A stretch of DNA of 64,000 bases from positions 887 to 64,886 of the forward strand of contig JAFSJY010000070.1 of the NCBI GenBank assembly GCA_017449215.1. The letters run 5' to 3'. The DNA comes from Acholeplasmatales bacterium (lineage in GTDB: Bacteria > Bacillota_I > Bacilli_A > Acholeplasmatales > Anaeroplasmataceae). Made by a program: the position numbers and the translations under genes. Shown in pieces: positions 3,459-12,862 of the stretch (position 1 is its first letter; each line of letters begins with the position of its first letter). The notes below the pieces were generated by a model that did not search any database, was not told where the DNA came from, and was given only the letters and a program-made list of their open reading frames with translations.

Positions 3459-4730
3459 TTATTGCTTTAACATATTAATAGGTATAACAAAAATTCCATC
3501 TTTTGTCTTATACAAAGGTCCACATGCAGTTATTACTGCTAAAAAGGAAGGTTCTTTAAATCTACTATAGTCAATTTTATTCTTTATTTTTCTAAGAGAT
3601 TCTAGTCCTTCATTAATTAAGTTTTCACCACCAAGTTTAACTTCCAACGCAGCCCAATTACCATTTTTCATATGTATTACAGCATCACACTCTAATCCAT
3701 CTTTATCTCTATAATGATATAAATTAGCTTTTAATCCTTGTGTATATATTCTTAAGTCTCTAATTACCATGTCCTCAAAGAATAATCCCATTGTATTCGT
3801 ATCATTAATTAAATCATTGGGAGAAATACCAAGTGAGGCAGTCGCTATTGATGTATCGACAAAATGTCTAGTCGGAGTAGTTCTTATAGCTGTTTTAGAT
3901 CTCAAATTAGGATTCCAAGCATCTAAATCCATTAAGACAAACAAGTTTTCTAATTTTTGAATATAACTTGTTAATGTTTCATCATCAATACTGGTATTAT
4001 CTGATTTCTTTATGTCAGATAATATTGTAGTATATGCGGCTTCAGAGGAAATATTTCTAGCAAATGAACGTATTATTAATTCGGCATATTTCCTATTATT
4101 AAAATAATTCTTTTCATCGCGTGATTTATAGTTAACCAATCCTTCATAATAATTATAACTAATTTCTAATGAATCTTTTTTATCAACCATTAAAGATGTT
4201 GGCCATCCACCACGACAAATTAAATATGCAATATCATCTAAAGTAATTCTATCATTTAAATCAAAATAGTCTTTATCAGGATTTTCAAATAAATCATTTA
4301 TTGATACTAAACCATTTGAATCTCCTGATTCATATAACGAAAACGGAAACATAACTACCCTTGAAAATCTTCCCTCGCCAGAATGAATAATTTCATCATA
4401 GTTTGCTGGCTGAACAGAACCAGTAAATAGAAATTGACCAAATTCATTTCTTTTGTCTACTTCATCTCTAACCTCATCCCATATTTCAGGAATATTTTGC
4501 CACTCATCGATAAGAACTGGTGTCTCACCTACAAGTGCTCTCTTTATATTTATACTATATAATTGAATTTGTCCTTTAGTTGAGAAACTATGTTCAGATT
4601 TAGCCATCATCATACACGTGGTTGTCTTACCACAATACTTCGGTCCAGTGACAAGTACTGCACCTGATGTTCTTAATTTTTTATTTATTAATTCTTCAAC
4701 AATTCTTTTTCTATATTTTTCATTATCCAT
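3459..4730 (-). CDS. AAA_14-type ATPase with DUF4143 / PD-(D/E)XK-like C-terminus
   Basis: GPKYCGKT, LIDEWQ, FTGS, GGWP, FVDTS, ECD...LEVK; ATG 4730 preferred over the GTG at 4739. Confidence 0.9.
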   Translation of the reverse strand: MDNEKYRKRIVEELINKKLRTSGAVLVTGPKYCGKTTTCMMMAKSEHSFSTKGQIQLYSINIKRALVGETPVLIDEWQNIPEIWDEVRDEVDKRNEFGQFLFTGSVQPANYDEIIHSGEGRFSRVVMFPFSLYESGDSNGLVSINDLFENPDKDYFDLNDRITLDDIAYLICRGGWPTSLMVDKKDSLEISYNYYEGLVNYKSRDEKNYFNNRKYAELIIRSFARNISSEAAYTTILSDIKKSDNTSIDDETLTSYIQKLENLFVLMDLDAWNPNLRSKTAIRTTPTRHFVDTSIATASLGISPNDLINDTNTMGLFFEDMVIRDLRIYTQGLKANLYHYRDKDGLECDAVIHMKNGNWAALEVKLGGENLINEGLESLRKIKNKIDYSRFKEPSFLAVITACGPLYKTKDGIFVIPINMLKQ

Positions 4731-4779
4731 AGACTTCACCCATCATTATTTTACTATAATTCGGTGAGCAAATCAACAA

Positions 4780-4844: not shown

Positions 4845-5009
4845 AATTTATGCATTTTTCCAACCTGTTTCAACGACAAAAATTGCATTTTTCTAACTAT
4901 TTTTTGCCGTTTATATTGCATTTTTCAATACTTTTATAATACTTATTAAGTATATATTCAATTAATCTATAATTACTTACTCGACTTATTTTCAAAATCT
5001 TTCCGCGAA

Positions 5010-5146
5010 AGGCAGCACCATTTGAAATTGCCGAAATATATTCACCTATTTCATCTTTCGAAAACCAATTTTCTTTAAAAACAAAACCACTCATATTCAT
5101 CATTAAAAGTTAACAAATTTTCTAGAATATCTATATATCTATTCAA
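5010..5146 (-). pseudogene. N-terminal relic of a Schlafen/AlbA_2-domain protein
   Basis: TTG start with AAGGAG SD; LNRYIDILENLLTFNDEYEWF then frameshift to FKENWFSKDEIGEYISAISNGAA, like recalled AlbA_2 N-termini (EWxEFKxN...IGEYISA.SN). Confidence 0.6.
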
Positions 5147-5169
5147 ATTAATTCAGCTCCTTTAAAAAT

Positions 5170-5537
5170 TCATAGTATAGAAGGACTTGACCCCTTTGTA
5201 TACATCCATGCAATTTCATCTAAAAAGATAACTTTCTTTTTTTGGCTGCTATTTTTAATTAATTCTTTTAGGCAACTAAATGCTTTGAACCAATCATTCA
5301 AGTCCTCTTCAGGTTTTAAACCATACTCTTTTAAAGATTCAGAAAAAGCATAAAGTTGTTCATTTTTCTTTCCATTATAAATACCTGCATATCTAAATAT
5401 AATACTTTCATTAAATAATTCATTAATTAAATATGTTTTCCCAATTCTACGTCTTCCATATATTGCTACAAAAGATGATTCTAATGAATTATATTTTTCC
5501 ATTAATTCTTAATCTCATTTTCTCTACCAATTAACAT
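5170..5537 (-). pseudogene. Truncated, frameshifted AAA ATPase (same subfamily as 1-961)
   Basis: MLIGREK* then frameshift into MEKYNS...AIYGRRRIGKT...VIFLDEIAW; ends shortly after Walker B. Confidence 0.85.
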
Positions 5538-6040: not shown

Positions 6041-6136
6041 ATTATTTTTATCATTAAACCTTGTAAAGAAAATGGATGCTGTTTCGTGTAATAAGAAAAA
6101 GCACCTCAATTAAGAGATGCTACAAGAGAAAAATTA

Positions 6137-7081
6137 TTACAATACAATAACTGTTTTTCCATCAACCTTATGATTATCAATATCAATTAAAGCTTGCTTT
6201 ATATCAGCAAAGTTATAGACCTCACCATATGTTGGATTGATCTTATATTTATTGATGTAGCCCATCATACTATCTATGATTTCCTGTGATGGATAATTAG
6301 AAAAGAATCCAGTTAAATAACAGCCATTCGGTATTTCTTTAATAGGATCAAATCCATCCATTAAGTAAACTTTACCAAGAAGCCCTGTTTGACATACAAT
6401 CCCATCTTTATTCAAGCATTTAAGAGAATCTCTTAGTGTTTTTGGTCCTATCAATTCTAGAATTTTATCAGCTTTTACTCGTTTTGATAAATTGCCATCA
6501 TCAATAATTGCCTTATCACATTCATCTAGTAATGATAGTTTTTCTTCGTTATGTGTTGTTCCTATCACTTTGCATCCTAAAGCTTTTGCTAGTTTTATAG
6601 TTGCATATCCTAAGGCGCACGTTGCTCCTCTAATTAACAATGTGTCTTCTTTTTTTAATTTCAAGCATTCAAATAATGAACCATATGCAGTGAAATATGT
6701 TTCTGGTATTGCACCTAACTTATCCCATGACAAATCTGATTTAATTTTAAAAATAGTTTTTCTTGGCAATAAAGCATATTCGGCATAACTTCCATTAAAG
6801 CTTCTACCCATTCCGCCCATTAGTGCCATTACTTTATCGCCTTTTTTTAAGTCAGTATTTGAGGGATTAAAAACCTCACCAACACATTCAATTCCTGGAA
6901 TGATAGGCTTTTTTATGTAATCATTATTGATTTCAAATGTTCTTAGAAGTTTTTCACTATGGTTTATTCCAAAAGCCTTAACCTTAACTAACACCCAGTC
7001 GTCTTTAACTGATGGTATAGCTACTTCAGTTAATTCTATATCTTTTGAATCAGTTACTTTATCTATTAATACTGATTTCAT
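6137..7081 (-). CDS. Medium-chain dehydrogenase/reductase, quinone-oxidoreductase-like (zinc-binding ADH family)
   Basis: VKVKAFGINHSE, IPGIECVGEV, LLIRGATCALG, GKTVI; lacks the Zn-binding Cys cluster. Confidence 0.85.
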   Translation of the reverse strand: MKSVLIDKVTDSKDIELTEVAIPSVKDDWVLVKVKAFGINHSEKLLRTFEINNDYIKKPIIPGIECVGEVFNPSNTDLKKGDKVMALMGGMGRSFNGSYAEYALLPRKTIFKIKSDLSWDKLGAIPETYFTAYGSLFECLKLKKEDTLLIRGATCALGYATIKLAKALGCKVIGTTHNEEKLSLLDECDKAIIDDGNLSKRVKADKILELIGPKTLRDSLKCLNKDGIVCQTGLLGKVYLMDGFDPIKEIPNGCYLTGFFSNYPSQEIIDSMMGYINKYKINPTYGEVYNFADIKQALIDIDNHKVDGKTVIVL

Positions 7082-7962
7082 AATAGTCTTTCGCTCCTTC
7101 TATGAATTAATCTTTTTCTATCTTTTTGGACTCCTCTTGCGTATTTTATTTCAGGATAACCGAATCCAACTATTAAAGGCATGCAGTGATTATTTGGAAT
7201 ACCTAACATATCTTTTGCTTCAGGTGATAATTCATTTAATACTTCAGCTGAATATGACATAATTAAAGTTCCAAGTCCATATGCATTAGCGATTATTTCA
7301 AAATATGTTGTTGCTATTATACATTCAACTTTTGCATCTTCTGCCCATTTGCCTTCAGCTCTTTTATGCGCAATAAACAAATGAGGTGCTCCACAAAATA
7401 GTAAATCATCTTTTCTAACTGTCTTTTCGCTTTCTTTCATCTTTGAATAATAAAAATTAGAAAAAGATGATGTATAAATCCCTTTCTTTGCTAAATCATC
7501 CATCTTTTTATATGCAACCTGTCTTATTTCATCTACAGCATCTTTATCATCAATAACTGTATATTCTACACTCATTGAATTACCACCAGTTGGAACACTT
7601 TCCATACAAGATAATATTTTATCTACTATTTTTGAATCGACATTCTTATCTAAATATCTTCTACAACTTCTTCTAAATTTAACAAGTCTTTCAATATCAT
7701 CGGATATTTTATCGCTTGGTGGCAAAGTTGAATCTTCAGGTTGTTTATTAAATATAGAAATAGCACCAGTTGGACAAACCGAAAGGCAGTGTTCACATTT
7801 CCAACATCCACGCCATCCAAATCTTTCAAATGGTTTTATATATGGGTATCCTTCATTATCATATTCAATGACCATACCATTACATACATTTTTGCATTTG
7901 CCACATTTTATACATTTATGTTTATCAACTATAAAATTGCATTTATATGATATATCTTCCAT
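7078..7962 (-). CDS. Nitroreductase family protein with N-terminal 2x[4Fe-4S] ferredoxin domain
   Basis: CIKCGKCKNVC and CWKCEHCLSVCP motifs; RRSCRRY, PTGGN, GLGT, GYP. Confidence 0.9.
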   Translation of the reverse strand: MEDISYKCNFIVDKHKCIKCGKCKNVCNGMVIEYDNEGYPYIKPFERFGWRGCWKCEHCLSVCPTGAISIFNKQPEDSTLPPSDKISDDIERLVKFRRSCRRYLDKNVDSKIVDKILSCMESVPTGGNSMSVEYTVIDDKDAVDEIRQVAYKKMDDLAKKGIYTSSFSNFYYSKMKESEKTVRKDDLLFCGAPHLFIAHKRAEGKWAEDAKVECIIATTYFEIIANAYGLGTLIMSYSAEVLNELSPEAKDMLGIPNNHCMPLIVGFGYPEIKYARGVQKDRKRLIHRRSERLL

Positions 7963-8792
7963 TATTCTTTTATCTCCTTAATAATTTTTGATATGTCATC
8001 ATTTATTAATAATGATTTATCTTTTATTTCATCAGGTACTTGATTAAAACCTTTATTAATGCATACATAAAAAGCATTCTTAAAATTATAGGTCATTCTT
8101 ATGAATGGATATTTAATTATTACAGGTGTATTAAACCCAACGCCAAGTTCTAAAAATAGCACTTTTTTATCTTTGTTTTTATTTAGAAAGTCTTCATATC
8201 TTTTAGAAGCTTCCTTCCATCCATCATCTTCTACAAACCTATCATCACTTCTTAAATTAGGCATCATTTCACGTCCACAAACAGGACATTTAGGAATTAA
8301 TGCTTGAGGTATTAGTCCATCTTTTAAATTATCAAGCATATTAAAAATTGCCTCTTTATTATCATATGTTTTATTATGACAAGGCTTGCTACATTGAAAT
8401 AGTCCATAATCCCCTTGTGTATAAAATAATCTTTTCTTATCAAAGCCTGAAAGTTGAAATTGATGATCAACATTGGTCGTAATGACAAAATAGTCCTTAT
8501 TTTTAACCAATTCAAATAATTCTTTATACAAAGGTTTAGCGCCTTCTTTATATCTTTGTAAATATATAAATCTTGACCAGTATCCCCATTTTTCTTCTGA
8601 TGTTTCAAAATTATGAAATGATGCAGAATACATATCGGTGTATCCATATTTTTTATTTATATCTTTAAAATTATCTAAAAAAAATTCTCCATCATATATA
8701 AAACCAGCCGCTGTAGATAATCCAGCCCCTGCGCCAATTATGATAACTTCAGAATCATTTATTAATTTCTTTAATCTTTCTATTATAGACAT
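7962..8792 (-). CDS. Class M sirtuin (SirTM-like, macrodomain-linked protein ADP-ribosyltransferase)
   Basis: GAGAGLS, TTNVDHQF, QGDY (Gln in place of the deacylase His), FQC..CH / CPVC Zn site, ELGVGFNTP; ATG 8792 with AGGTGA SD. Confidence 0.9.
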   Translation of the reverse strand: MSIIERLKKLINDSEVIIIGAGAGLSTAAGFIYDGEFFLDNFKDINKKYGYTDMYSASFHNFETSEEKWGYWSRFIYLQRYKEGAKPLYKELFELVKNKDYFVITTNVDHQFQLSGFDKKRLFYTQGDYGLFQCSKPCHNKTYDNKEAIFNMLDNLKDGLIPQALIPKCPVCGREMMPNLRSDDRFVEDDGWKEASKRYEDFLNKNKDKKVLFLELGVGFNTPVIIKYPFIRMTYNFKNAFYVCINKGFNQVPDEIKDKSLLINDDISKIIKEIKE

Positions 8793-9501
8793 CAAAATCA
8801 CCTTCACTAAATAAATCAAATATTACTTTTTTGATATTCTTATTATCTTCTTTTAAATATTTATTTACTGTACTTATTGCAATTAAACTTGCTTTTTCAA
8901 TTGGAAAACCATATAAGCCTGTTGAAAGTGAACAAAAACAAATTGATTCTAATTTCATTTCATCTGCCTTTTTCAAGCAAGATAAATAGCAATTTTTTAA
9001 ATCAATTTCATCTTGTATGCTTCCTTTATATATTGGTCCAACTGTATGGAAAATAAATTTAGATGGTAAATTATATCCTTTTGTCACTTTACATTTACCA
9101 TTTGGTTCATCATATCCTTGAATGAGCATCATATTCATCATGTCACATCTAACCTGAAGTCCGGCAAATGAGTGAATGGCATTATCGATGCAATGGTGTC
9201 CTGGTACAAAGCAACCTAACATTTTATTATTACAAGCATTAACTATCGCATCAGCATTTATTAATGTAATATCACCTTTAAATAAACTTATACCGTCATT
9301 AAATTCTTTAACATCAACTATTTTCTTTTTTGATAATGTTTTTTTTAATACATTATCTTGTTTATTATAGAATTCAGTAGATAAATTAGAAGGCATAGTA
9401 ATATTAAGCAATGCCCTTAATGTATCAAAATCATATCTAAGTTCTTGATTAATATTATTAACTTCTTTTAAATAATCAATACACCATTTTAAATCATCCA
9501 T
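8755..9501 (-). CDS. Zn-containing macrodomain protein (protein-ADP-ribose hydrolase)
   Basis: GDIT, AIVNACN, CFVPGHHC (CX4HXC Zn loop), IDNAIH, IFHTVGP, STGLYGFP. Confidence 0.92.
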   Translation of the reverse strand: MDDLKWCIDYLKEVNNINQELRYDFDTLRALLNITMPSNLSTEFYNKQDNVLKKTLSKKKIVDVKEFNDGISLFKGDITLINADAIVNACNNKMLGCFVPGHHCIDNAIHSFAGLQVRCDMMNMMLIQGYDEPNGKCKVTKGYNLPSKFIFHTVGPIYKGSIQDEIDLKNCYLSCLKKADEMKLESICFCSLSTGLYGFPIEKASLIAISTVNKYLKEDNKNIKKVIFDLFSEGDFDVYNRKIKEINK

Positions 9502-9503
9502 TA

Positions 9504-10532
9504 TTATTTCACCTCATACCAGCATTCAGGATCCACTGCATACATATTGCCACCGCTATAGCCGTATGCTACTGCAGGACATCCTCTACAAAATCTTAAA
9601 AGTGGGCATTTAGAACATTTTTCAAATTTTTCATAAATCCTATATTCATCCATTTTTGGTCCTGTAAATAAATCATATAAATCATCTTCTAAAGCATTGC
9701 CGACTTTAGATTCCATTCTTCTGCATGCATAACATGACCCATCTGATAAGATAGTAAAATGGGCATTACCACAATTGCATCCATCATAAACATAATCATC
9801 ATCAGGATAATCCTTAGGATTAAAACGACCTTGCTCATATAAATACAAAGTCCACAAATGATCTTTATAAGAAAAATATGTGTTTGAATCTTTATATTGC
9901 ATAAATTTCTTGTCACATTCAGAAAGTAGCCACTTATATTCTTGTGGTGCGCAACATACATCTCTATCTTTAAACGAAGGGCAATATCTAGCAAAGGCAA
10001 ATATATCGAAATTAGCTTTTACTACTTCGTCTACTAAATCTGGAATTTCTTTATAATTCCATTTTGAAACAGTAGTCATACATGCAACTTGTATACCTGC
10101 TTGTTGAAGCACTTTTACTTTAGATATAGTTTCATCATATGACCCGATTTGTCTTATTCTATCGTGTGTTTCTTTTAGTCCATCTAAAGACAATTGATAT
10201 TTTCTAACGCCACATTCATACATTTTTTTAGAGTTCTCTAAAGTTATATGAAATGGATTACCGAGTATGGCGATTTTCCAACCTTTTATTTTAATTTTCT
10301 CTAATAAATTCCAAAATTGTGGATGTAATATTGGATCACCACCAGTTATATATAAATATGGTTCTCTATTTGATTTCTTTTTGAAAGTTTCAATATTTTC
10401 GATAACCTTATCCATTTGGTCTAAAGTCATCATTTTAAATTTAGCATGGCTACCAAGCGCATATATATAGCAATGCTTACATCTTTGATCACATTCTTCT
10501 GTGATATGCCATTGAAATGAAAAATATTTCAT
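9504..10532 (-). CDS. Radical SAM/SPASM maturase, ACGX system
   Basis: QWHITEECDQRCKHC (CX3CX2C), TGGDP, SPASM cysteines CNCG..C and CSKC..CRGC..C; adjacent to an ACGX peptide; ATG 10532 with AGGA SD. Confidence 0.92.
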   Translation of the reverse strand: MKYFSFQWHITEECDQRCKHCYIYALGSHAKFKMMTLDQMDKVIENIETFKKKSNREPYLYITGGDPILHPQFWNLLEKIKIKGWKIAILGNPFHITLENSKKMYECGVRKYQLSLDGLKETHDRIRQIGSYDETISKVKVLQQAGIQVACMTTVSKWNYKEIPDLVDEVVKANFDIFAFARYCPSFKDRDVCCAPQEYKWLLSECDKKFMQYKDSNTYFSYKDHLWTLYLYEQGRFNPKDYPDDDYVYDGCNCGNAHFTILSDGSCYACRRMESKVGNALEDDLYDLFTGPKMDEYRIYEKFEKCSKCPLLRFCRGCPAVAYGYSGGNMYAVDPECWYEVK

Positions 10533-10539
10533 AATAAAT

Positions 10540-10585
10540 CCTAAAATAAGGAAAAGGTGCACTATATTTCAAGCACACCTTCAAA
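10540..10585 (-). terminator. Hairpin plus U-rich tract between peptide and maturase (probable leaky terminator)
   Basis: Minus strand AAGGTGTGC-ttgaaatata-GTGCACCTT followed by TTCCTTATTTT. Confidence 0.55.
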
Positions 10586-10589
10586 ATCC

Positions 10590-10790
10590 TTACTTCTTGT
10601 CAGGAGCGCCACAGGCTGAACCGCATGCGCTTGGTTTTGGTTCTTCTTCCTTTTTGTCAGGAGCACCGCATGCACTACCACATGCTGATGGTGTTTCCTT
10701 CTTTTCTTCTTCTGGTTTGTCGTTTGATCCACATGCAGATCCACATGCTGATGTAGCAACATCTTTACCAAATAAATTTTTAAGTGCCAT
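10590..10790 (-). CDS. ACGX-repeat peptide (putative RiPP precursor, 66 aa)
   Basis: Three SACGSACG units with acidic/Lys linkers; GGAGG SD; matches the recalled ACGX-repeat peptide family. Confidence 0.9.
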   Translation of the reverse strand: MALKNLFGKDVATSACGSACGSNDKPEEEKKETPSACGSACGAPDKKEEEPKPSACGSACGAPDKK

Positions 10791-10830
10791 GGTTAATACC
10801 TCCTATAAATATTTGTAGCTTAACTACACT

Positions 10831-10904
10831 TATATTATATCAATGAGATTTTATATTCTTCCCAACAAAATCAAACAAAGTGTCGGAATTTGTGATATAA
10901 TATA
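10831..10904. promoter_or_regulatory. Divergent promoter region, mirror-image -10 boxes (12-bp inverted repeat)
   Basis: TATATTATATCA (10831-10842) and TGATATAATATA (10893-10904), each containing TATAAT. Confidence 0.5.
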
Positions 10905-10929
10905 ATATATTTAATTTGAGGTATAAAAT

Positions 10930-11517
10930 ATGAAGCAATATGAAAAAGCAAGAAACGAAATGAAAGAAAGAATCAGGAAAGCATTTTGGACACTTTATAA
11001 AAAATATAATTATCAAAACATAATGAACGTTAAAGAAGTTACAGACTTAGCTAATGTTAATCGTTCAACATTCTATTTTTATTATCAGCATACGGGTGAA
11101 ATATTAAATGAACTAATAGAATGGCTAAAAGATGAAATTGTTACAATTTATTCTTCTAGAAAAAGACAAGATGGAGATTTTAATGATTTTTATAAAGAAA
11201 TATATGAACATTTTAAATTAAGAAAAAAATACCTTGTCCCTCTTGTATGTGAATCAAGACATCCTGAGTTTGCATTATGGTATAGAAATAATCAAAGAGA
11301 AATGTTTAAAGAGGATATCGGCTTAGCTCATTATCATTTAGATAAAAAGAAAAATAAAATTATCGATATAGCATTAGCTGGTATTATAGAAGAGCAGATT
11401 CAAACATTTGGATATGGCGAACTAACAATTGATGATTCTTTTTACCTTGAATTAGGAACTTTACAAAATGGTTTATTAACTACATTAGAAAAAAGATTTG
11501 ATATAAGAAAAAAATAG
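10930..11517 (+). CDS. TetR/AcrR family regulator, divergent from the ACGX-SirTM operon
   Basis: N-terminal HTH VKEVTDLANVNRSTFYFYY; GAGG SD. Confidence 0.88.
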   Translation: MKQYEKARNEMKERIRKAFWTLYKKYNYQNIMNVKEVTDLANVNRSTFYFYYQHTGEILNELIEWLKDEIVTIYSSRKRQDGDFNDFYKEIYEHFKLRKKYLVPLVCESRHPEFALWYRNNQREMFKEDIGLAHYHLDKKKNKIIDIALAGIIEEQIQTFGYGELTIDDSFYLELGTLQNGLLTTLEKRFDIRKK

Positions 11518-11790
11518 TCAATACTTACGTATCAGCTATGCTTAACTCTGATGGAGGCTCCAAACTGATATAAACCAATCGTTAAAAAGTGTAAGAAAAC
11601 GTTAAAAGGTGTGCGGTTGCAAATTTATGGACCGCACCAGAAAAACAAAAAGGTGCTTATTTTTGCATTTTTGAAGCATTAATAAACACCTTAATTATTC
11701 GATTTATGGCTTAACTAAGCCACTTTTATATAAAATACCTTAATACAAAATTGTATCAAAATATACTATTCATTATGGGGGACCAACAAA

Positions 11791-11907
11791 CAATTGAAAT
11801 TGGCTTAGTTAAGCCATTTATTTGGTAGACTTGTCATTTTTGGGGTCGGTAGAGCAATTGAACAATCGTCTCAACGTGTGTCTTTGAAACCCATAGAAAA
11901 GATATCA
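11791..11907 (-). repeat. att-like site S5 (HVETIVQL), composite of the S1 arm and the S2 arm
   Basis: 11871-11907 matches S1; 11791-11876 matches S2. Confidence 0.8.
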
Positions 11908-12016: not shown

Positions 12017-12862
12017 TTATTTTTCTTCATATGTAATTTTCCAATTCAAATAGTTTACTAATGCTTCATCAGATCTTATATATCTTCTTTGATGTTTATT
12101 TAATTTTAAAATTTCATTCATATCTTCATTAGACAAACAAAAATCAAATATATCAATATTATCCTTGATATGTTCCACATTTTTGCTCCCAGGAATAACG
12201 ATAAAACCCATTTGTGTGTGCCATCTTAAAACTATTTGAGCAGTTGATTTATGGTATTTATTTGCAAGATTTATAATTATTGGATTATTTAATAATTCAC
12301 CTGTCATATCTTTTCCACCTAGTGGATACCAACTCATAATTTTAATTTCTTCTTTTTTAGTTATTGTTCTTAATTCATCTTGAGGAAAAAATGGATGGCA
12401 TTCGACTTGAATAACTTGAGGTTTAACATCAAATTCAGCCAACACTTCGTTTATTTCACTTTCGAAATTAGAAATACCAATGGCTTTTATTTTTCCCTTT
12501 TTATAAGCATTAACTAATTGTTTATATCCTTCTCTCCAATTTTTAGTTGGCTGATGAATAAATAATAAATCGATATAATTAGTGCCTAATCTTTCTAGTG
12601 TTTCATCGACTGCATTTGGATTTTCATATTCCGTTGGCCATAATTTTGTTGATAAGAAAATTTCTTTTCTATCAACACCTGATTCTTTTATTCCTCTACC
12701 TACTGCACGCTCATTCATATAAGCATTAGCTGTATCAATTAATCTATATCCAAGTTTTAAAGCTTCTTTTACACTATTTTCAGCATCTTTTGGTTCAAGT
12801 AAAAAAGTACCAATACCAACTGATGGCATTGTTATGCCATTATTTAATTTAAATTCTTTCAT
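12017..12862 (-). CDS. Aldo/keto reductase (2,5-diketo-D-gluconate reductase-like)
   Basis: GYRLIDTANAYMNE, STKLW, YIDLLFIHQP, GISNF, IPGS. Confidence 0.93.
   Translation of the reverse strand: MKEFKLNNGITMPSVGIGTFLLEPKDAENSVKEALKLGYRLIDTANAYMNERAVGRGIKESGVDRKEIFLSTKLWPTEYENPNAVDETLERLGTNYIDLLFIHQPTKNWREGYKQLVNAYKKGKIKAIGISNFESEINEVLAEFDVKPQVIQVECHPFFPQDELRTITKKEEIKIMSWYPLGGKDMTGELLNNPIIINLANKYHKSTAQIVLRWHTQMGFIVIPGSKNVEHIKDNIDIFDFCLSNEDMNEILKLNKHQRRYIRSDEALVNYLNWKITYEEK

Follow-up and report, generated by a model that had tools for sequence, protein, structure and literature searches.

A class M sirtuin/Zn-macrodomain pair inside an ACGX-repeat peptide/radical SAM operon of an Acholeplasmatales bacterium: conserved linkage of two separable modules in Firmicutes

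GcvH-L is, to our knowledge, the sole substrate known for class M sirtuins (SirTM). The extended GcvH-L operon is well studied: in Staphylococcus aureus and Streptococcus pyogenes it encodes GcvH-L, a Zn-dependent macrodomain protein (Zn-Macro), SirTM and LplA2, together with LLM and OYE, and the S. pyogenes protein (SpyGcvH-L) is modified on Asp27, near the lipoyl dithiol, solely after lipoylation (Rack 2015, PMC4518038; Acosta 2025, PMC12440151). Minimal SirTM/Zn-Macro pairs have been described as stand-alone, with radical SAM enzymes not mentioned and with their targets stated to be unknown; all Zn-Macros tested cleave Asp/Glu-linked ADP-ribose, and MorMacro of Methanobrevibacter oralis is inactive on GcvH-L (Ariza 2024, PMC11490716). 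The ACGX system has likewise been catalogued, as a precursor peptide (TIGR04341) and a radical SAM enzyme (rSAM; TIGR04340); these family definitions appear to cover just the peptide/enzyme pair, the reductase, regulator and SirTM/macrodomain context given below being from the present surveys. We found no paper on the ACGX repeat, TIGR04340/TIGR04341 or rSAM_ACGX, no published chemistry or role, nor a paper joining SirTM with radical SAM enzymes. In this study, we analyzed a stretch of 64,000 nucleotides (the window) of contig JAFSJY010000070.1 from an Acholeplasmatales gut bacterium (assembly GCA_017449215.1), in which an ACGX peptide/rSAM pair and a SirTM/Zn-Macro pair lie in one operon, and surveyed the linkage of the two across genomes.

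The minus strand of the window carries six ORFs arranged head to tail, from position 10790 to position 6137, which encode in turn the ACGX-repeat peptide, the rSAM, a Zn-Macro, a SirTM, a ferredoxin-nitroreductase fusion (Fd-NTR) and an MDR-family oxidoreductase (Table 1). An earlier note on this sequence had described six genes in one orientation, the last five abutting or overlapping; coordinates and junctions bore this out, and family or structure matches confirmed its domain assignment for each of the six. The terminal five genes are tightly coupled, with translational coupling in the window: as read from the sequence, a 2-nt gap separates the rSAM and macrodomain genes, the macrodomain gene lies directly upstream of the SirTM gene and overlaps it by ~38 nt, the start of the Fd-NTR gene overlaps the SirTM stop by 1 nt, and the Fd-NTR and MDR genes share an ATGA overlap. 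The parallel to the staphylococcal operon that the same note had drawn is real, in that both clusters, the known one being linked to oxidative stress, combine an ADP-ribose writer and eraser encoded by adjacent, overlapping genes with flavin oxidoreductases and a small acidic, sulfur-bearing polypeptide encoded alongside. Unlike that operon, the window contains no gene for GcvH-L, LplA2, LLM or OYE, its candidate for the carrier, a repeat peptide, comes with an rSAM maturase, and its reductases are of the nitroreductase/ferredoxin and MDR types. The absence of GcvH-L and lipoate ligase genes, which had been reported for the window, is true of the whole host genome (2.05 Mb, 98.7% complete): there was no GCV_H match above cut-off, the one weak match being a biotin carboxyl carrier protein with an EAMKVM motif rather than GcvH, no LplA catalytic domain was present in the genome, and tblastn of the genome with Mycoplasma GcvH-L, LplA, OYE and LLM gave no match.

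With regard to the minimal pairs, the window pair agrees with that of M. oralis (MorMacro, 8RSI) in its Zn-loop and in pair organization but, unlike it, is embedded in a six-gene operon. The window contributes a TetR-type ACGX core with an MDR gene, shared with Methanomassiliicoccales; the insertion of the pair between the maturase and the reductases; and a paralogous pair that stands alone elsewhere in this genome, that of a host without any lipoylation machinery. This second pair (contig C16, 3714-6082) is 66% (SirTM) and 62% (macrodomain) identical to the window pair, and there an HxlR gene is divergent from PNPOx-like, macrodomain and SirTM genes. On a further contig (C56, 62207-65424), a 451-aa protein has a macrodomain at its N-terminus, followed by a long C-terminal extension that looks PARG-like by eye. 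A PNPOx-like gene is located 1.5 kb upstream of it, and the locus may be the third in this genome to handle ADP-ribose.

The identity of the pair was examined by alignment. The window macrodomain matched Pfam Macro (1.3e-30), and its best solved structure was that of MorMacro. Its CFVPGHHC aligned with CFIPMHNC of MorMacro, giving the Cx4HxC Zn-loop; the Asp/His dyad of Zn-Macros was found as CIDNAIH; and the alignment, starting at residue 12, spans the N-terminal extension, a three-helix bundle in Zn-Macros. The score against the protein-ADP-ribose hydrolase family NF003163 was 266.3 bits, narrowly under the cut-off of 272. For the SirTM, whose best structural match was SpySirTM (5A3A), the class M hallmark of QG in place of the catalytic HG (Gln137 of SpySirTM) was present, YTQGDYGL aligning with HIQGEYGL, and the positions equivalent to Asn118 (ITTNVD vs ITTNAD) and Arg192 (NLRSDD vs NKRNEE) could be located in the same alignment.

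A scan with an rSAM_ACGX alignment of 15 proteins, whose homologues (3,122 at E <= 1e-20) span Bacteria and Archaea and are widespread among anaerobes of gut and rumen, yielded 225 genomic loci, of which 80 were kept and their neighbours clustered. A recurring plan was observed: a divergent regulator (HxlR in 29, homologues of the window's TetR-like gene in 10, or Rrf2), then the peptide, the rSAM and one or more reductases (nitroreductase in 31, PNPOx-ferredoxin in 24, Fd-NTR in 3, and MDR homologues adjoining the rSAM gene in 24, including Methanomassiliicoccales and Prevotella), with or without a macrodomain gene and then a SirTM gene closing the 3' end. Neither a transporter nor a protease was recurrent across the 80 loci, and the product is therefore probably intracellular. 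The macrodomain and SirTM genes were present in 23 of the 80 loci. When the count was restricted to loci that extend 5 kb or more beyond the rSAM gene in the downstream direction, SirTM was found in 14 of 22 loci from Bacillota, 1 of 7 from Thermoplasmatota and none of 19 from Bacteroidota; SirTM was not adjacent in Bacteroidota and most archaea.

To this survey we added two unbiased samples with one genome per species, evaluated by Fisher tests that ignore phylogenetic kinship. Among 299 species of Clostridia (the centre genome left out), seven had ACGX, 27 had SirTM and six had both (p = 2e-6), and in all six double-positive genomes the two lay on the same contig and in the same operon, 1.6-3.7 kb apart. 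Among 399 species of Bacilli, SirTM was found in 46 and ACGX in five, each of which also had SirTM (p = 1.7e-5), adjacent in three of the five; leaving out the window's own genome, all four remaining ACGX-positive genomes had SirTM (p ~1.4e-4, hand calculation). Of a further 48 ACGX genomes whose fetched locus lacked SirTM, 21 had SirTM elsewhere, and many of these loci broke off at contig ends. The earlier note had named a linkage not conserved in other genomes as what would speak against it; in this neighbourhood survey, the ACGX-SirTM linkage is conserved and non-random in Firmicutes, well beyond chance.

The two parts are also found apart. Approximately 80% of SirTM-positive Firmicutes (Mycoplasma-type GcvH-L operons left out) had no ACGX anywhere in the genome, and their pairs sat in operons with a macrodomain-SirTM order next to HxlR, or with a PNPOx(-Fd)-macrodomain-SirTM order next to HxlR or Rrf2. 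A Cys-repeat peptide was searched for near these non-ACGX pairs and none was found, which disposed of a hidden peptide of this kind as their partner. In a maximum-likelihood tree of 88 SirTMs, the GcvH-L-linked proteins, here from Mycoplasma-type genomes, formed one clade (support of 99) apart from all minimal pairs, which is a further difference between the extended operon and the window. ACGX linkage was clustered on this tree (16 parsimony changes vs 25.6 in shuffles) and still scattered, as well-supported branches force at least 8 changes. The window SirTM belonged to a clade of eight (support of 100), the other seven members of which come from ACGX-free contexts, one of them being its own paralogue. 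With ACGX-linked SirTMs interspersed with unlinked ones in this way, the sirtuin does not look peptide-dedicated.

The closest ACGX operon was found in an Erysipelotrichaceae metagenome-assembled genome (L002). Its rSAM, MDR, Fd-NTR and TetR-like proteins were 70-83% identical to those of the window, whereas its macrodomain and SirTM were just 43% and 53% identical, and its pair follows the reductases instead of preceding them; in L003 and L004, which come next in relatedness, a SirTM/macrodomain pair was absent. High identity of the core, low identity of the pair and the different place together suggest that different pairs entered this operon type separately. In general, that ACGX hardly ever occurs without SirTM in Firmicutes, that SirTM usually occurs without ACGX, and that linked and unlinked SirTMs are closely related makes repeated module fusion the simplest account. 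Such one-way dependence suggests more than co-regulation, and some ACGX component probably benefits from the switch.

One could suppose that there is no functional relation at all, the modules being neighbours by chance or through hitch-hiking on a mobile segment. Each of the two modules is mobile. The rSAM_ACGX proteins of Clostridia, Bacteroidota and Methanomassiliicoccales share 64-72% identity, and their mean column identity is 76%; such conservation is unusual for a peptide maturase and points to strong constraint plus horizontal transfer among gut/rumen anaerobes. However, the enrichment (p ~1e-5 to 1e-6) was obtained in two independent species samples, linkage changed at least 8 separate times on the tree of SirTMs, insertion points differ between operons, and the genes in the window are translationally coupled. 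The SirTM tree also speaks against the linked operons stemming from a single recent transfer. Thus, the lack of any functional relation seems very improbable to us. Two over-long rSAM_ACGX entries (443 and 508 aa) that had been taken for possible fusions turned out to be low-complexity mis-translations.

We read the cluster as one stress-type operon that has been repeatedly assembled from two mobile modules also found apart. The first, the ACGX module, consists of the leader-bearing peptide, the rSAM/SPASM enzyme, NAD(P)H/flavin/Fe-S reductases (Fd-NTR and MDR here, nitroreductase or PNPOx-ferredoxin elsewhere) and a divergent redox-type regulator (TetR-like here, HxlR or Rrf2 elsewhere). In this module, the rSAM would modify the peptide Cys residues, forming either a Cys-to-Asp/Glu thioether or an SbtM-like heterocycle, and the interchangeable reductases would then reduce or recycle the modified peptide. 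The second is the minimal SirTM/Zn-Macro writer/eraser pair, which elsewhere occupies HxlR/Rrf2 operons, alone or with PNPOx-type flavoproteins. Such pairs appear to have been inserted into ACGX operons many times, here between the rSAM and the reductases and with a pair closest to the genome's own second one. The two modules would then be functionally coupled in one response, the inducing stress presumably being of a thiol/redox kind, and the SirTM acceptor would be neither the peptide nor ACGX-specific; we put the chances of this reading at about even. The SirTM phylogeny suggests that the principal acceptor is also present in ACGX-free genomes; it would most likely be a ferredoxin/flavin reductase partner or an unlinked protein, and the peptide would be at most an additional client.

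Several observations weigh against this reading. First, SirTM was present in 11 of the 12 ACGX-positive Firmicutes, usually in the same operon, a bias too strong for mere co-regulation, and such one-way dependence is easier to understand if SirTM has a client within the ACGX module. Second, the peptide and the rSAM are constant in SirTM-bearing ACGX operons, whereas the reductase type varies. Third, two SirTM clades are mostly ACGX-linked (six of seven and nine of ten members, respectively). Fourth, an approximately unbiased (AU) test of joining the window and L002 SirTMs, with the group picked after the tree had been seen, was borderline (delta lnL 85, p = 0.053), so that independent insertion is supported mainly by the contrast in identity and by gene order. 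Finally, the only characterized SirTM system encodes its acceptor inside the operon (PMC4518038; PMC12440151).

Some of these points favor the view that the rSAM-matured ACGX peptide is itself the SirTM acceptor, i.e., a repeat-built sulfur carrier doing the job of lipoyl-GcvH-L. SirTM would mark the Asp/Glu four residues past a Cys once maturation has taken place, the Zn-Macro would remove the mark, and the mark would gate access of the Fd-NTR and MDR enzymes. The strong one-directional co-occurrence and operon membership, and the invariance of peptide and rSAM next to variable reductases, are in line with it, and so are the lack of GcvH and LplA in the genome, the action of Zn-Macros on Asp/Glu-linked ADP-ribose, the inactivity of MorMacro on GcvH-L, and the precedent of Asp27 in SpyGcvH-L, which lies near the lipoyl dithiol and is modified post-lipoylation. 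The window peptide gene adjoins the rSAM gene in the same orientation; its product carries no signal sequence, and consists of a leader, MALKNLF, and three units of SACGSACG(S/A)(N/P)DK. The leader M-x-LKNLF starts 53 of 57 ACGX peptides and the repeat is kept likewise, the core units being ACG[ST]ACG[AST]G[DE]K or the shorter ACGxG[DE]K. Also in line with a peptide acceptor, among 356 Cys residues of these peptides, 172 (48%) had Asp/Glu and 153 (43%) had Cys at i+4; with 91% thus having one or the other, the repeat unit can be written as C-x3-C-x3-D/E.

On the other side, approximately 80% of SirTM-positive Firmicutes manage without ACGX, and SirTM relatives 60-67% identical occur in ACGX-free operons, including the paralogous pair of this genome. 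The D/E motif is as conserved in Bacteroidota and archaea without SirTM; differences in the repeat go with taxonomy rather than SirTM, Firmicutes having GDKK and Bacteroidota G[DE]KP, and no association across lineages was found between SirTM presence and the repeat Asp/Glu or the K-K tail. Being equally kept in lineages without SirTM, the D/E does not mark out an ADP-ribose acceptor; if used for a thioether, the Asp may serve maturation instead. The earlier note had proposed that the modified peptide replaces lipoyl-GcvH-L. The conserved linkage and a genome without GcvH-L or LplA support it in part, whereas the mostly ACGX-free occurrence of SirTM pairs, the ACGX systems of Bacteroidota and most archaea with no SirTM alongside, the interspersed SirTMs, the D/E kept without SirTM and the hairpin after the peptide gene temper the idea, since the sirtuin is not peptide-dedicated. 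Overall, we consider a peptide acceptor possible but rather doubtful. If true, it would represent a sulfur/redox carrier of the RiPP type, a peptide made by the ribosome and then modified post-translationally, replacing lipoyl-GcvH-L in gut anaerobes without lipoylation, and the first ribosomal peptide natural product to be reversibly ADP-ribosylated.

What the rSAM may do to the peptide was approached through its relatives. The window enzyme scored well above the TIGR04340 cut-off of 400 and also matched Pfam Radical_SAM and SPASM; the family alignment starts at residue 12, which is why the true start is probably the ATG at 10532. The next-best family was SbtM (TIGR04082; 189 bits across the rSAM/SPASM region, under its cut-off of 350), the score against the PapB family NF047865 was 62.9 bits (cut-off 340), which places the enzyme outside that family, and the nearest solved structures, SkfB and CteB, were distant (1e-8 to 1e-11). 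Two leads for the chemistry emerge from these similarities, thioether or heterocycle formation at Cys. PapB forms cross-links in Cys-X3-Asp/Glu that join sulfur to the Asp beta carbon or the Glu gamma carbon (PMC9413430). The ACGX system resembles the ranthipeptide pair PapA/PapB (freyrasin) in having repeated Cys-X3-Asp/Glu behind a leader, an rSAM/SPASM maturase and interchangeable Asp/Glu, and differs in the lack of a transporter or protease and in the extra Cys four residues upstream in most units. SbtM, a thio(seleno)oxazole maturase, is the best-scoring characterized rSAM family after ACGX and also acts on peptide Cys/Sec; however, its N-terminal ~196 model positions have no counterpart in the window rSAM, and the peptide family is different.

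As a third possibility, SirTM would act on one of the operon's Fe-S/flavin enzymes, either the ferredoxin-domain reductase or the rSAM, switching it in a DraT/DraG-like manner. DraT/DraG is an off/on control of the nitrogenase Fe protein by ADP-ribosylation. Directly upstream of macrodomain-SirTM, ~40% of non-ACGX pairs have a gene for PNPOx-ferredoxin or a small PNPOx-like protein, as do many ACGX operons. Two PNPOx copies occur in some operons, as if one per module, and the second pair of this genome follows a PNPOx-like gene. In the window, the overlap of the Fd-NTR start with the SirTM stop is of the same tenor. The Fd-NTR matched Pfam Nitroreductase at 6.7e-20 and Fer4_9/Fer4_7 at 1e-8, and its orthologues were found solely in the closest ACGX loci, L002 and L004 (70-75% identity); the MDR protein scored 140 bits against TIGR02824, below cut-off. 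But the reductase family beside the pair varies (nitroreductase, PNPOx-ferredoxin, MDR or Fd-NTR), several HxlR/macrodomain-SirTM operons have no reductase, and SirTM action on such enzymes is without known precedent. We therefore regard an Fe-S/flavin acceptor inside the operon as unlikely. In any case, the recurrent fusion yields a short list of acceptors, the matured peptide and the ferredoxin/flavin reductases, and the linkage provides a testable candidate for SirTM targets beyond staphylococci and streptococci. As a small defined gene set, the operon could be rebuilt in a laboratory host, where both the SirTM target and the role of ACGX could be addressed together.

The limits of the operon were drawn from consensus scans, and the features in and around it are summarized in Table 1.

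Table 1. Coordinates of the operon genes, the divergent regulator and putative signals in the window
Feature	Position	Strand	Evidence
Divergent regulator, weakly TetR-like	10930..11517	+	PDB 3KKC 1.9e-7, 2EH3 6.5e-6; Pfam TetR_N 14.5 bits
Divergent promoter region, possible operator	10791..10929	.	Inverted pair, promoter-like site, Shine-Dalgarno
ACGX-repeat precursor peptide, 66 aa	10590..10790	-	TIGR04341 51.5 bits, cut-off 28
Terminator/attenuator-like hairpin, peptide/rSAM interval	10553..10582	-	11-bp stem then T-run
Radical SAM/SPASM enzyme of ACGX system	9504..10562, probable start 10532	-	TIGR04340 546.1 bits
Zn-dependent macrodomain, predicted ADP-ribosyl hydrolase	8755..9501	-	8RSI MorMacro 3.4e-64
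Class M sirtuin (SirTM), predicted ADP-ribosyltransferase	7962..8819, probable start 8792	-	5A3A 2.1e-61
2x[4Fe-4S] ferredoxin + nitroreductase-family flavoprotein fusion	7078..7962	-	Pfam Nitroreductase, Fer4_9/Fer4_7
MDR-family NAD(P)H (quinone-type) oxidoreductase	6137..7081	-	ADH_N + ADH_zinc_N
Operon-ending terminator-like site	6100..6121	-	8-bp stem then TTTTTCTTATT, 16 nt past MDR stop codon

A gene divergent from the operon is present as the earlier note had described, but its assignment to the TetR family was supported in part only, the TetR_N score lying under the Pfam cut-off of 24 while PDB TetR structures were matched; judged by these matches, it seems weakly TetR-like and divergent in sequence. 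Between it and the peptide gene, a perfect 13-nt inverted pair, TTATATTATATCA and TGATATAATATAA, is located at 10830-10842 and 10893-10905. This may be an operator, in a region so AT-rich that the pair could have arisen by chance. A promoter-like site on the minus strand (10927-10899) and a Shine-Dalgarno sequence (AGGAGG) ahead of the peptide ATG were also observed.

The interval of 57 nt between the peptide stop and the rSAM ATG holds the hairpin listed in Table 1. A strong stem-loop 3' of the peptide gene was found in most of 61 related loci, its position kept and its sequence different, with a median fold energy of -22 kcal/mol over the first 70 nt. A stem-loop after the precursor gene is the usual arrangement for precursors produced in excess of their enzymes. 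The conserved position thus suggests attenuation with the peptide in excess, and the amounts of peptide and enzymes probably differ. A composition scan around the operon revealed no anomaly, and an origin of the operon as a mobile island was accordingly set aside.

Some relatives of the operon have additional genes between the reductases and the macrodomain gene, namely a RelB/RelE-like toxin-antitoxin pair, an HD-domain gene and a PPC/DUF296-like gene (named by eye), none of which is recurrent. In three Clostridia loci (L118, L120 and L121), a RelB/RelE-like pair and an HD-domain gene lie within the ACGX-SirTM operon, between the PNPOx-ferredoxin and macrodomain genes (~7800-9100 in L118). 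In another locus (L148; G250:C112:3746-4559), the SirTM gene directly 3' of the ACGX rSAM gene is split in two by a TAA stop, and that genome retains an intact SirTM pair elsewhere.

Just downstream of the operon, the window has an intact DUF4143/AAA_14 ATPase gene (3459-4739) and short AAA-like ORF fragments (4897-5502), which may be remnants of a duplicated ATPase. On the other side, the interval that separates the TetR-like gene from an aldo/keto reductase gene (12017-12862) has two copies (11707-11722 and 11801-11816) of a 16-nt palindrome, TGGCTTAACTAAGCCA, which may be bidirectional terminators or a repeat element.

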